A DNA stretch of 50,306 nt from Nannocystaceae bacterium. GTDB taxonomy: Bacteria > Myxococcota_A > Polyangia > Nannocystales > Nannocystaceae. Shown here in pieces: positions 11,597 to 20,654 of the stretch (the first letter of the stretch is position 1; every line of letters starts with the position of its first letter). The notes under the pieces are model-generated. The model saw only the letters and a program-made list of their open reading frames with translations, was not told the DNA's origin and ran no database searches. The stretch covers positions 1-50,306 of the forward strand of contig JAWKRA010000004.1 of NCBI GenBank assembly GCA_041389865.1, in the 5' to 3' direction. A program made the translations under genes and the position numbers.

Positions 11597-12229
11597 ATGG
11601 AGATCGACTTGAGCGCGCCACGAGGCGAGCGTCACGAACCCGGGCTCTCTCAGGAGGCTTCGACGCTGCTCGCCCGCCACAGGGATGAGCTCCTCGCGTT
11701 CATCGAATCGCGAGTCAGAGACCGGGCGCTCGCGGAGGACGTGCTGCACGCCGCGTACGTGCGGGCGCTCGAGAAGGGCTGCCTCGTCCACGACGACGAG
11801 CGGACGCTCGCTTGGTTTCGTCGGGTGCTCCGCAACCTCGGCGTCGATCTGCTGCGACGACGCGACGCCGGTCGCCGGGCGGTCGAGCTGTGGAGTCGAG
11901 ATATTGAGCGATGCACGCCTGGCCTCGACCGCGGCGACTCTCGAGACCCATGCCAGTGCGTCGAAGAGCAGCTCCCGCGCTTGCGATCCTCGTACGAGGT
12001 GGTCCTTCGCCGCGTCGCCTGGAACAGGGAGGCGATCGCCACCATCGCCTGTGATCTCGGCGTGAGCGCGAACACCGTCCGCGTACGCCTCCACCGCGCA
12101 CGCGCGGCGATGCGTCGATCCCTGCTCGCGGTCTGTGGCGCCGGCGCGCCCGGGCGCTGCTCGGACTGCCGCTGTAGCGAGTCGATGACCAGCGTCGAGG
12201 CGCCTGCGGCCGCCCCTCACCGGCGCTGA
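11597..12229 (+). CDS. ECF sigma-70 factor with C-terminal cysteine-rich extension (CorE-like, ECF44-type)
   Basis: Sigma-2 (LLAFIESRVRDRALAEDVLHAAYVRA) and sigma-4 (VVLRRVAWNREAIATIACDLGVSANTVRVRLHRARAAMR) regions, a linker CQC, and a tail CGAGAPGRCSDCRCSE. Confidence 0.7.
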   Translation: MEIDLSAPRGERHEPGLSQEASTLLARHRDELLAFIESRVRDRALAEDVLHAAYVRALEKGCLVHDDERTLAWFRRVLRNLGVDLLRRRDAGRRAVELWSRDIERCTPGLDRGDSRDPCQCVEEQLPRLRSSYEVVLRRVAWNREAIATIACDLGVSANTVRVRLHRARAAMRRSLLAVCGAGAPGRCSDCRCSESMTSVEAPAAAPHRR

Positions 12230-12237
12230 CCGCCGAG

Positions 12238-12819
12238 TCACGGCGATCCCTCCTCCTCCGCGCTTGCGCAATGGGTGCAGACGGAGAAGTAGTAGCCGAG
12301 CGCGAGCCCCATGAACGCGATCCCGGCGAGTCCCTCGAGCGCGGAGAGCAGCTTGGCGAGCGGCGTGACCGGTGTGAAGTCGCCGTAGCCGACGGTCGTG
12401 ATCGTGATGACGCTTAAGTAGAGCGAGTCGCCCATGATCCTGTGAAGCGCGACGACGGGCGACGTTTCGGCTCCGTGGAGCGGCAGGAAGCCACGGATCG
12501 CAGGCGCTCCCGGGCCGACGTGCGCGAGGGTGTAGAGAGCGGCGAAGACCAAAATGAGCGAGGCGTAGGACTGCAGCAGGGCCATGATGCGGAAGCGCGT
12601 GTGATCCCGAATCACTCGGGCGAGCGCGACAGTGAGCCCCACGACGGGCAGGACGCCAGCGCACACGGCGAACAACGCCGCGATCAGAGGCGGTGGCGTC
12701 GAGCTCGCGGCGCTGTACCCCACGAGCCCGAGATACGGGATCGCGCAGAGCATGACCGTGACGAGCAGGGGCTGACCCCGCAGCGCCGACAGGAGCATCT
12801 CTCTACGAATTGCGATCAC
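12238..12819 (-). CDS. two-TM K+-channel-like protein (Ion_trans_2) with selectivity filter TVGYGD
   Basis: ITITTVGYGDFTPVT between two hydrophobic helices. Its start codon overlaps the cusA stop (ATGA), so it is translationally coupled to the RND pump. Confidence 0.6.
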   Translation of the reverse strand: MIAIRREMLLSALRGQPLLVTVMLCAIPYLGLVGYSAASSTPPPLIAALFAVCAGVLPVVGLTVALARVIRDHTRFRIMALLQSYASLILVFAALYTLAHVGPGAPAIRGFLPLHGAETSPVVALHRIMGDSLYLSVITITTVGYGDFTPVTPLAKLLSALEGLAGIAFMGLALGYYFSVCTHCASAEEEGSP

Positions 12820-18737: not shown

Positions 18738-20161
18738 CGCAACTCCTTGGATGCCCGGACCGGGCGGCCGACGACCTGCTCGAGCTCAGCCCAGGCGATC
18801 GCCGCGTCGACGCGGGCGCGCAGCGCCATCAGCCGCAGGTCAAGCAGCTCGCGCTCCGCCATCAACACCTCGACCACGCTCGCGCGGCCGCTCTGGTAGC
18901 TGGCCTGGACGGCCTCGTAGGACGTCTCGGCCAGCGGGATCATCGTTGTGTCGTAGAGCGCGACCCGGCGGTCCGCGTCGCGCAACCTCGCCATCACGCG
19001 TTCGAAGTCCTCGACGGCGTGGTTGCGAGCGGCGAGCTCACGCGCGCGAAACATCCGCGAGCGGGCTCGCGCCTCATCCTCGCCGGCGCTGTAGGAGCCG
19101 AACGAGAGCGGCACCTTGATGGCCGCCATGCCCATGACCGCGTCCTTGCCAGAGTCGGGCATCGTGGGATCAGCGGCCGGTCCGGTGATGATCCAATCGA
19201 CGCCCAGGCCAAAGCTCGGGAACCGATCGGCTCGTGACTGCCGGACGCGCTGGTCGCTCGACTCGGACATCAGCGCCAGCGCCCGCACGCGTGGGTGCGA
19301 GGTGGCGGCGAGCCGCAGCGAATCGTCGTCCTCGCCCGGGACTCCGATCCGCGGCGTCGCGGTGTCGATCGGGGTCGCAGCGCCATCGGGCGCGCCCACC
19401 ACCCGCACGAGCGCGGCCGCGGCGGTCCGCGCGTCCTCGTCGAGCGCGGCGAGGTGGTCCTCGGCGCGGGTGACCCGGAGGTTGATCTGCGTGAGGTCAG
19501 AGAGAGCGGCCGCGCTGGCCTCGACGCGGACGCGCACGAACTCGGCGACGGTCTGCAAGAGCGAGAGCTGCTCGGCCTCGACCTCGCGCGTGCGCTTGAT
19601 CAGCCACAGGCGCCAGTACACCGCCGACACCTCGGCCGCGATCCGGAGCGCGTGGGCTTCGAATTCGCGCTGGGCAGCCCGCGCGGCCAGGGCCTCCGCC
19701 TCACTCGCGGCGGTGAGCTTCGTCGGCCATGGGAACCACTGCTGGAGCCCGAGCTTGTGGCGCTGCGGGCCGACGCGCGTCTCGACGCTGCGGATGAACC
19801 CCGCGTACGAGATCATCACCTCGGGGAGCCGACGAACCATGCGCGGCCGATAGGTCGCGGCCCGCCACGCTTCGAAGCTAGCCCGCAGCTCCGGACTGTG
19901 CTCGAACGCGTACTGCTGGTAGCGCAGCAGCGTCCCGTCGAACGACGCGGTCGACGGCGTCGGCTGCTGCGCTGCGCCATCGTCGACGGGGCGAGCAGGC
20001 AGCGGGGCGAGCTGACGCTCGACACGCGCCGCGTCGCGTCGCGTCGCGCGTTCGACGGTGCCGGCGCACGCAGGGCCAGCGCTCGCGAGCGCGGCGGCCA
20101 GCAGGGGCCAGGGAAAGACCGTCCGCCCCGCTCGAGCGGACGTCGGTTGTTTGGATGACAT
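18734..20161 (-). CDS. cusC: TolC/CusC-family outer-membrane efflux protein
   Basis: Start taken at the internal Met (MSSKQPTSARAG) with a signal peptide. Two TolC-like repeats. The 4-bp overlap with the cusB start indicates a cusCBA operon. Confidence 0.75.
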   Translation of the reverse strand: MSSKQPTSARAGRTVFPWPLLAAALASAGPACAGTVERATRRDAARVERQLAPLPARPVDDGAAQQPTPSTASFDGTLLRYQQYAFEHSPELRASFEAWRAATYRPRMVRRLPEVMISYAGFIRSVETRVGPQRHKLGLQQWFPWPTKLTAASEAEALAARAAQREFEAHALRIAAEVSAVYWRLWLIKRTREVEAEQLSLLQTVAEFVRVRVEASAAALSDLTQINLRVTRAEDHLAALDEDARTAAAALVRVVGAPDGAATPIDTATPRIGVPGEDDDSLRLAATSHPRVRALALMSESSDQRVRQSRADRFPSFGLGVDWIITGPAADPTMPDSGKDAVMGMAAIKVPLSFGSYSAGEDEARARSRMFRARELAARNHAVEDFERVMARLRDADRRVALYDTTMIPLAETSYEAVQASYQSGRASVVEVLMAERELLDLRLMALRARVDAAIAWAELEQVVGRPVRASKELR

Positions 20162-20249
20162 GGAAGAACCTGTTCCTCGCGCTGTGATGCTCTCAAGACC
20201 CCACGCCGCCCGCGTACACGAGGGCGGCGACAGCTCAAGCGCGGCTGGT

Positions 20250-20654
20250 TCACAGCAAGTAGGAGCAGTTCTGCTTGTAGAGGCCCACGCGGTCTGGTGG
20301 ACCTCGTGCCCGAGCGCGCGCGAACGAGGCGCGCGCGACCGGACGGGCCAATGGCGCTGTGTGTCGGACGTGAGACACCCGCGCGACCGACGGGGACGGC
20401 TCTGGATCGTCGAGCACAGCCGACGGCGCGCCCGCGCGGGACATGTCCGAAGAGCAACACGGCTCACGCTGGACGGAGGCCGCCTCGCGCCCCTCCGGGT
20501 CGCGGTGCTTGCAGCAGCAGCACGACTCCACCGCTGTGGTCGGGCACGCGCGCGTCGGCGTGCCTGGCAGCGTGAGGGCGATCGCCATCAGCACGCCGAG
20601 CAGACGAGCCCACCACGGCGTCGTGCCTCTCGCTCGGCTCGCGGCGTCGCTCAC
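20250..20654 (-). CDS. candidate small secreted Cys-rich protein (CCCC motif) directly upstream of cusC
   Basis: N-terminus MSDAASRARGTTPWWARLLGVLMAIALTLPGT looks like a signal peptide, followed by ACPTTAVESCCCCKHRDPEG...PCCSSD. High GC3 in the first ~80 codons. The C-terminal third is low-complexity, so its extent is uncertain. Confidence 0.3.
   Translation of the reverse strand: MSDAASRARGTTPWWARLLGVLMAIALTLPGTPTRACPTTAVESCCCCKHRDPEGREAASVQREPCCSSDMSRAGAPSAVLDDPEPSPSVARVSHVRHTAPLARPVARASFARARARGPPDRVGLYKQNCSYLL

Follow-up and report, generated by a model that had tools for sequence, protein, structure and literature searches.

In a 50,306-nucleotide stretch of contig JAWKRA010000004.1 from a Nannocystaceae bacterium (GenBank assembly GCA_041389865.1; the whole stretch is hereafter the window), we found that the gene for a small potassium (K+) channel at the end of a cusCBA-type copper efflux operon belongs to a rare channel family that is almost confined to copper loci. 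Based on the rarity of the family, its genomic contexts and a comparison with generic channels, we take the family to be an accessory devoted to Cu(I) export. The metal module that includes this gene spans 10.8-21.2 kb of the window, with its operon on the minus strand in the order 134-residue Cys-rich secreted protein, cusC, cusB, cusA and TVGYGD K+ channel, and it is best explained as one copper(I)/silver(I) defence unit of a Nannocystaceae bacterium, with a single tightly packed transcript giving five products. Going by the sequences, we put a probability of roughly 0.5 on the channel being one that responds to Cu(I)/Ag(I) and, by passing K+, assists copper efflux, a claim that draws its strength from the rarity of the family, its specific association with copper genes, the coupling to neighboring genes and a family-specific motif.

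The host is an uncultured myxobacterium of marine type. The G+C content of the window is ~70%, the sigma factor gene beside the operon (sigma2, below) encodes a protein 100% identical to protein P0033 of a "Nannocystaceae bacterium" metagenome-assembled genome (MAG), the window channel is 100% identical to P0001, which is labelled "Myxococcales bacterium", and one of the loci recovered in our searches, L094 (GCA_020431275.1), is the same DNA as the window. We checked the genes by listing of open reading frames (ORFs), translation, Pfam and NCBIfam scans, and G+C content at third codon positions (GC3). All genes named in a first-pass annotation of the window were found in this way at or near its coordinates, and GC3 agreed with the frames of sigma2, a divergent lipoprotein gene, the channel gene (kch), cusA, cusB, cusC and the Cys-rich ORF.

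The channel gene (12238-12819, minus strand) encodes 193 residues with an Ion_trans_2 domain (PF07885, 52.7 bits against a cutoff of 22.5) and the selectivity filter T142VGYGD; the filter, as TxGYGD or TxGFGD, is invariant across the family. The first-pass annotation had the channel ATG overlapping the cusA stop; the overlap is there, but the codon is GTG (GTGA), with AAGGAGGAGG just upstream of it. NCBI places the start at an ATG 21 nt (seven codons) downstream of the GTG. We prefer the overlapping GTG because homologs retain an overlapping start and a conserved N-terminus. The protein is laid out as an amphipathic helix, two extra N-terminal transmembrane (TM) helices and a 2-TM pore with hinge glycine G166. 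Sequence matches in the PDB were K+ channel pores, and Foldseek searches with an AlphaFold2 (AF2) monomer model (pLDDT 84.6, pTM 0.78; inner helix unbroken over residues 153-187) returned K+ channel pores only. By BLAST, residues 132-172 aligned gap-free to KcsA 65-105 (offset 67), which places G166 on the KcsA hinge G99. From the charged loops and the positive-inside rule, both termini are predicted to be cytoplasmic, and the protein would be expected to form a tetramer with K+-selective conduction.

Relatives of this channel are scarce. A word-indexed search of 5.8 billion proteins returned 14 close relatives, all from MAGs or metagenomes, and an exhaustive profile search of 1.84 billion representatives returned 18 proteins at E-values of 1e-30 or less, about 20 clusters; matches below that threshold were generic multi-pore channels. 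Scans of GTDB and of metagenomes each held at least one true family member among the matches listed, the TITTVGYGD pattern is generic, and a plasmid collection had no channel-family member. Where the surroundings of a family member could be recovered, 12 of the 13 contexts were metal loci (cusCBA, CsoR-CopA or MerR-CopZ). The channel gene is last, after cusA and with a 1- or 4-bp overlap, in the window (and L094), L003, L005/6, L007/8 and L176. In L011 it follows cusCBA by 13 bp and is itself followed by a ~57-residue peptide, a DUF5676 protein and a Cu-ATPase; in L096 and L177 one or two extra genes stand between cusCBA and the channel; and in L009, where cusBA lies alongside, the gene to which it is coupled encodes a methyltransferase. 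Away from cusCBA, it lies between CsoR and a Cu-ATPase (L012, L093) or within a MerR-CopZ-MerT-thioredoxin locus adjoining copAB-type oxidase genes (L010). The channel gene overlaps or abuts its upstream gene in the window, L003-L009, L012 and L176; the spacing is 5-13 bp for L177 and L011, and wider for L010, L093 and L096. The first-pass annotation had considered a K+ channel after cusA unusual, and had named loss of this order in related genomes as grounds for dropping the idea; we found the order to be unusual and conserved in relatives. What that annotation underrated was its weight, as this is not a one-off adjacency but a rare copper-locus family.

As a control we used the generic-pore loci returned by the GTDB and metagenome scans (158, of which the 97 of at least 10 kb were used), and screened these and the family loci with one tblastn panel at fixed thresholds. 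Copper genes were found in 10 of 11 family loci versus none of 97 generic-channel loci (hypergeometric p ~3e-13, by our own arithmetic). The remaining family locus, L003, fell below the panel threshold only through its cusA being cut by the contig end. Two further loci found after the control, L176 and L177, were both cus-linked.

Two observations weigh against so tight an association. Several of the loci come from closely related MAGs, so that the number of independent contexts is ~11 rather than 13, and in L013 (Nitrospinaceae) the neighbors of the family member are a dicarboxylate symporter and parAB, and no metal gene could be seen; the channel there is 829 bp from the contig end. The L013 member, which places the family outside a metal locus, together with integrase genes near L003, L010 and L177, would suit an ordinary housekeeping K+ channel hitch-hiking in a metal-resistance island that is mobile or undergoing rearrangement, its adjacency to metal genes having no functional meaning. 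However, the association persists at 34-59% identity to the window channel and in three unrelated operon types, the channel overlaps or lies within 13 bp of its upstream gene in most loci, generic channels gave 0/97 in the control, and the family has its own conserved Cys/His motif and is otherwise nearly absent from 15 billion proteins. We thus regard hitch-hiking as highly improbable, and chance adjacency of channel and copper genes as very unlikely.

Separately, we noted that a ~57-residue TM peptide and a DUF5676 protein recur between channel and Cu-ATPase in L011 (10627-11101), L012 (4575-5031) and L093 (4552-5008); CsoR/CopA-type loci with this peptide and DUF5676 constitute a second conserved operon architecture that contains the channel.

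The motif that sets the family apart lies at the end of the inner helix, which in the window channel reads C181-T-H183-C184. In our alignment the family-specific ending is YF(S/A)(V/Y)C, and the motif Cys is followed by T-H-C in the window clade, by x-(S/G/Y)-C in others, and by x-H in the CsoR/CopA-linked and several cus-linked members. A Cys at position +39 from the filter Thr was present in 21 of 27 family members, mostly as C-x-H or C-x-x-C; the next 130 generic matches, with 254 pore domains between them, had no Cys there. With the KcsA register continued and the inner helix of the AF2 model unbroken, C181, H183 and C184 would fall at KcsA 114, 116 and 117, the depth of the bundle-crossing gate. 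The KcsA 114-117 region (KcsA numbering) is what we take to be the bundle-crossing constriction and pH sensor.

In the mechanism we propose, the channel would be made in fixed proportion to the pump through translational coupling to cusA, and the homotetramer would present a ring of four Cys plus four His, or four further Cys, at its cytoplasmic mouth. Binding of cytoplasmic Cu(I) or Ag(I) to this ring would alter gating, so that K+ flux could be tuned during pump activity; these metals are proposed because copper in the cytoplasm takes the form of Cu(I), for which Cys and His are favored ligands. The flux might clamp the membrane potential near the K+ equilibrium potential against electrogenic pumps and metal-damaged membranes, or trade membrane potential for the pH gradient (delta-pH) that drives H+/Cu+ antiport; more generally, it could fix or remodel the two driving forces of CusA and CopA, membrane potential and delta-pH. 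It might also serve a Kef-like protective K+/H+ exchange. Taken at its broadest, the proposal would make the family an unrecognized class of ligand-gated K+ channel in which a four-fold Cys/His gate ring senses cytoplasmic Cu(I)/Ag(I) directly; wired into copper export operons, the channel would turn metal stress into altered K+ flux and membrane energetics, to the benefit of the pumps or of the cytoplasm. We offer this wider claim tentatively and consider it rather doubtful.

Several points count against metal gating. The gate-region Cys is wholly missing in 4 of the 27 members and lies one residue earlier in 2 more; the gate placement extrapolates the helix register past the gap-free KcsA alignment, on a monomer model; and a canonical TVGYGD channel would be useful without metal, Cu(I) gating being one of several roles that the Cys could have. 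The divergent members, the canonical pore and the translational coupling, which already links channel dose to pump dose, would all fit a channel that conducts K+ constitutively and aids efflux by charge compensation or by replacing K+ lost via metal-damaged membranes, with operon induction setting its expression and the Cys/His residues acting as a structural element, a redox or disulfide lock or a poisoned site rather than as a Cu(I) sensor. Against this stand the specificity of the motif (21/27 versus 0/254) and the predicted position of the soft ligands, at KcsA gating depth on the cytoplasmic side, where copper exists as Cu(I). Constitutive conduction is plausible, but we consider it unlikely.

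The pump genes upstream of the channel identify the operon as Cus-type, as the first-pass annotation had it. The product of cusA (12816-16676, minus strand) is a Cu(I)/Ag(I)-type pump of the heavy-metal efflux (HME) group of resistance-nodulation-division (RND) transporters, in a long form. It scored 760.2 bits against the CusA/CzcA model TIGR00914, above the curated cutoff of 701.45, and its best solved relative was E. coli CusA (PDB match, 3e-182). The periplasmic-cleft Met triad, which in E. coli CusA binds Cu(I)/Ag(I), is kept, E. coli M573/M623/M672 aligning to M740/M790/M879 of the window protein. The TM4 motif is AIGTMVDMGIVFTEN, which fits A-x5-D-x6-E, in our understanding the monovalent-type rule of HME-RND classification. 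The first-pass length of 1286 residues is that of the maximal ORF; a start at the ATG at 16655, after GGAGAGG, is likelier and gives 1279 residues. Upstream, cusB (16683-18737, minus strand) encodes an adaptor that has HMBD at its N-terminal end and DUF3347 at its C-terminal end (Pfam, NCBIfam); its ATG overlaps the cusC stop (ATGA) and is preceded by AAGGAG. The outer-membrane factor gene cusC (18734-20161, minus strand; OEP domain) encodes 475 residues, the length of the NCBI call in L094. We rejected a 577-residue cusC ORF reaching 20467 as an over-extension, since GC3 falls upstream of 20161. No CusF-like ORF was found in the operon, where the sole extra periplasmic candidate is the unrelated 134-residue Cys-rich protein.

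The window CusA is not the standard protein of 12 TM helices and ~1045 residues. Between TM6 and TM7 it has an insertion of ~110 residues with four hydrophobic helices: residues 548-724, with four hydrophobic segments inside, cover only ~50 residues of E. coli CusA, and the added length comes mostly from residues ~548-655. Long CusA proteins (1249-1297 residues) are common to L005, L007, L009, L011 and L177, but not L096, which has the standard 1045 residues. As an observation on the pump itself, the insertion would give a 16-TM RND protein. That most cus-linked loci carry the long CusA, and that the channel is placed among Cu(I) transporters, would suit a channel that passes a soft monovalent metal (Ag+, Tl+ or Cu+), or a protein that conducts nothing but docks, as partner or regulator, to the added helices of the long CusA. 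However, the invariant TxGYGD/TxGFGD filter has carbonyl oxygens suited to K+, and the channel also occurs with a standard-length CusA (L096) and without any CusA (L010, L012, L093). We find either role improbable.

The first gene of the operon (20250-20654, minus strand) encodes 134 residues with an N-terminal signal peptide or anchor and a CCCC motif. The first-pass annotation had listed it as a candidate; equal length and coding-type substitutions in relatives mark it as a real conserved gene. At 405 nt, the ORF has exactly the same length in the window, L005 and L007/L008; the proteins of these diverged relatives are 47-49% identical over residues 7-134 (the full 134 residues when aligned). 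Substitutions were more numerous at third than at first and at first than at second codon positions (63/49/39 for the window versus L005; 41/28/15 for L005 versus L007). Invariant motifs are RACPT, CCCC-x-H, PCC-x-SD, ARGPP and a C-terminal LYKQxCS[YF]LL, the gene being conserved in L005-L008. Given the signal peptide or anchor, the Cys-rich part is predicted to be periplasmic. The protein had no Pfam or NCBIfam match at E-values of 0.01 or less, HYC_CC_PP included, and no match in the 5.8-billion-protein search, which also missed the ORF itself; the gene is known from four related loci only. In the more distant L177, an 85-residue HMBD protein occupies the slot before cusC. Since this HMBD protein holds the same position, the small Cys-rich protein is probably a metal-binding accessory, as judged by gene position.

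Further genes accompany the operon in relatives. As the first-pass annotation stated, sigma2 diverges from a lipoprotein gene (10782-11471, minus strand), as its coordinates and strand confirm; it encodes 229 residues, starting with a signal that has the lipobox LLVSGC and including the motif HEMPEMDYCPL and a number of conserved Cys, at a GC3 of 0.83. Orthologs of 52-65% identity stand beside sigma2 or right after the channel in L003, L005-L009 and L094; the protein had no Pfam or NCBIfam match and no fold assignment. On the other side, divergent from the operon, a 156-residue four-TM membrane protein is encoded at 20764-21234 (plus strand). It is 57-66% identical in L005-L009, where its gene is likewise divergent from the operon (L005-L008) or directly follows cusA (L009), and it is probably part of the module; it had no Pfam or NCBIfam family and no fold assignment. 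We also noted a 213-residue SAM-dependent methyltransferase (Methyltransf_11/UbiE type) in the window (23006-23647, plus strand) and in L005 (14369-15010). It recurs in most channel-bearing copper loci (also L003, L007, L009, L012, L096 and L177), and the window and L005 proteins are 79% identical, above the identity of neighboring genes. In L007/L008 a gene for a 167-residue Met/His/Asp-rich lipoprotein, which is missing from the window, lies between channel and sigma2 (L007 9870-10373, minus strand).

The window encodes two CorE-like sigma factors of the extracytoplasmic function (ECF) type, as the first-pass annotation had reported and as their Cys positions, Pfam matches and neighboring copper genes bear out. 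The hallmarks of this group are a CxC in the linker and a C-terminal domain rich in Cys (CRD; PMC8999054, PMC4937300). In CorE the Cys are C120/C122, C181, C184, C189, C192, C194 and C206, those at 181, 184, 192 and 194 being near-universal (PMC3107203, PMC4937300). The CxC is essential in CorE and CorE2, and C189 is essential in CorE, with delta-proteobacterial members needing this equivalent (PMC4937300). CorE C184 is needed for Cu(I)-dependent inactivation, and the C184A protein is constitutive and does not shut off (PMC3107203), while the position of CorE A185 is that of CorE2 C174, the Cys that determines Cd/Zn response (PMC4937300).

Sigma1 (40277-40840, plus strand) is by these marks a canonical copper-type CorE. 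Its Cys are C106/C108, C167-x2-C170-x4-C175-x2-C178-x-C180 and C184, with C106-C180 at an offset of -14 to CorE, and Thr171 stands at the CorE A185 position. Its gene lies between a YHS/HMBD Cu P-type ATPase and a multicopper oxidase (40837-42459), whose start its stop overlaps; multicopper oxidases flank sigma1. Sigma2 (11597-12229, plus strand; 210 residues), 39% identical to sigma1, matches region 2 and region 4.2 only (PF04542, Sigma70_r2, 26.1 bits; PF08281, Sigma70_r4_2, 32.6 bits; both over cutoff). The linker C119-Q-C121 and the tail C180GAGAPGRC188SDC191RC193SE are as the first-pass annotation gave them, the linker corresponding to CorE C120/C122. The Cys are in register with CorE C120/C122/C181/C189/C192/C194 at an offset of -1, with C188 equivalent to CorE C189 and CorE2 C178; the C184 position is taken by Gly183 and that of A185 by Ala184. 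Sigma2 thus has three of the four near-universal CRD Cys (C180, C191 and C193), and because Gly replaces the C184 equivalent we class it as a variant rather than a canonical CorE. Among 110 homologs, 68 had full CorE spacing with CxC and only 4 were without a C184-type Cys; the sigma2 orthologs in L005 and L007 have the same Cys pattern as the window protein. As judged by its Cys, sigma2 is a rare natural variant without the off-switch Cys, and since the Cys for Cu(I)-dependent inactivation of CorE is missing, its copper response would be sustained rather than transient. The first-pass suggestion that the two circuits divide copper and another metal between them, as CorE and CorE2 do, did not hold up: the CorE2 Cys is absent from both (Thr in sigma1, Ala in sigma2), and both modules have only Cu(I)-type hardware. 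We rejected CorE2-type Cys in both sigma factors as a mis-registration, which the Cys numbering of the CorE paper reveals.

How the operon is controlled is less straightforward. Sigma2 adjoins the operon, as the first-pass annotation said, but converges on its end, away from the operon promoter; only 8 bp lie between the stops of sigma2 and the channel gene. Scanning for sigma-70 promoters and terminators between the two convergent genes gave nothing useful and no terminator-like structure. Upstream of the operon, 72 nt before the small ORF, lies a 30-nt element (AACGAGCGA-N7-GATCATTACACCTC; 20726-20755, minus strand) that is conserved in L005, L007 and L008 and contains the AAC typical of ECF -35 elements. 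Its sole relative in the window, where 0.01 chance matches are expected, is GACGGACGA-N7-GGGCATTACACCCC (37692-37721, minus strand), upstream of a multicopper oxidase gene (36144-37496, minus strand) in the sigma1 module. Two results weigh against control of the operon by sigma2 through such an element. A copy in L005, AACGAACAAG...CATTACACGTG (15056-15085, plus strand), lies in the opposite orientation 46 bp before the methyltransferase gene, and no ECF-type promoter could be assigned to sigma2 in a search of the sigma2/lipoprotein upstream region. Because of the reversed L005 copy, the leader element may serve as the operator of some other regulator and not as a promoter with a fixed direction.

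A serious possibility, if one that we put somewhat short of even, is that sigma2 regulates only itself and the divergent lipoprotein gene, the cus-kch operon being driven by sigma1 or another regulator via the shared CATTACACC element. The convergence of sigma2 with the operon end points this way, as do the recurrence of the leader element in the promoter region of the sigma1-module oxidase and the sigma2/lipoprotein intergenic region, where conservation is poor and neither gene is preceded by a copy of the element. There is also a precedent, corE2 being paired with the lipoprotein gene MXAN_5262 (PMC4937300). On the other hand, all close relatives (L005-L008, L094) have sigma2 together with the cus-kch operon, regulons of the CorE type are local (PMC4937300), and a search of the window for other metal regulators, CsoR and MerR homologs included, found none. 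In the intergenic region between sigma2 and the lipoprotein gene, a perfect tandem repeat, (GTCGTTG) x3 (11482-11502), lies immediately upstream of the Shine-Dalgarno sequence of the latter; L005 and L007 do not conserve it. By Rfam and tRNA scans, the region contains no RNA element.

Elsewhere in the window, a third sigma-like protein (45588-46361, minus strand) matches region 4.2 alone, and its tail, RCAHYARSNPCSCSE...DCPPGH, is rich in Cys. This may be another regulator with a Cys tail, by analogy with the sigma4-only CRD protein MXAN_0974 of M. xanthus (PMC4937300). Between the two copper modules lies an F-type ATPase operon (23672-30292, plus strand) with the gene order beta first (23672-25264), later alpha (27864-29369) and gamma (29366-30292). 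We take a beta-first order to be typical of the atypical "N-ATPase" (Na+-type) operons. Public records of these loci hold some artefacts: an antisense ORF is called instead of sigma2 in L001 (826-1599) and L005 (10705-11265), and the NCBI annotation of L094 leaves the Cys-rich small gene uncalled (2149-2550) and splits cusA in two.

Bacterial K+ channels are structurally famous, while their physiological roles are mostly obscure. Copper efflux is deemed well understood and, to our knowledge, the textbook picture of it contains no ion channel. A channel family of Cu(I) operons offers a concrete and testable physiological role for a prokaryotic K+ channel, and points to a missing energetic or protective component of copper and silver resistance. 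The hypothesis is cheap to test, as the channel is small (~190 residues), the model is confident and three point mutants are obvious. Sigma2, for its part, is a natural experiment on the CorE off-switch Cys.

Compared with known systems, the operon is closest in its pump genes to E. coli CusCFBA, with which it shares the gene set of outer-membrane factor, membrane fusion protein and RND pump, the Met triad and the A-x5-D-x6-E of TM4. It differs in lacking cusF and adjacent cusRS, in the HMBD and DUF3347 of its CusB, in the ~110-residue insertion and four extra helices of its CusA, and in including a Cys-rich leader gene and a K+ channel gene. The two sigma factors resemble M. xanthus CorE and CorE2 (ECF44, now ECF238) in their sigma2 and sigma4.2 domains, CxC linker, C-terminal CRD, nearby copper genes and lack of an obvious anti-sigma gene. 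Sigma1 matches the Cys spacing of CorE exactly and sigma2 differs by the Gly in place of C184, while the C174-type Cys of CorE2 is in neither; the likeness of sigma2 to corE2 is one of gene pairing, each having a partner lipoprotein gene. For a K+ channel gene inside a copper-resistance locus, the likeness we found is in a figure legend: kch is drawn beside copB in Acidithiobacillus ferrivorans ACH (PMC7463520, Figure 2), and the text of that paper is silent on kch. In the literature available to us, we found no description of K+ channels in bacterial copper operons beyond this kch. The copper-locus family and its gate motif point to a link between copper export and potassium flux that has so far gone undescribed.

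The channel itself shares the pore helix, TVGYGD filter, glycine hinge and long inner helix of KcsA and other 2-TM pores (the Lmo2059 pore 4H33, NaK2K and KirBac). It differs from them in its two extra N-terminal TM helices, in having no cytoplasmic ligand-binding domain, in the family motif YFS(V/Y)C-x-(H/C) at the site of KcsA's bundle crossing and pH sensor, and in its genomic home in copper operons. The K+ efflux systems KefB and KefC belong to the CPA2 transporters, carry KTN domains and open with glutathione adducts as their gating ligands; they have no homology to the window channel, and the resemblance is one of function by analogy only, in that a toxin-responsive K+ flux shields the cytoplasm during detoxification.

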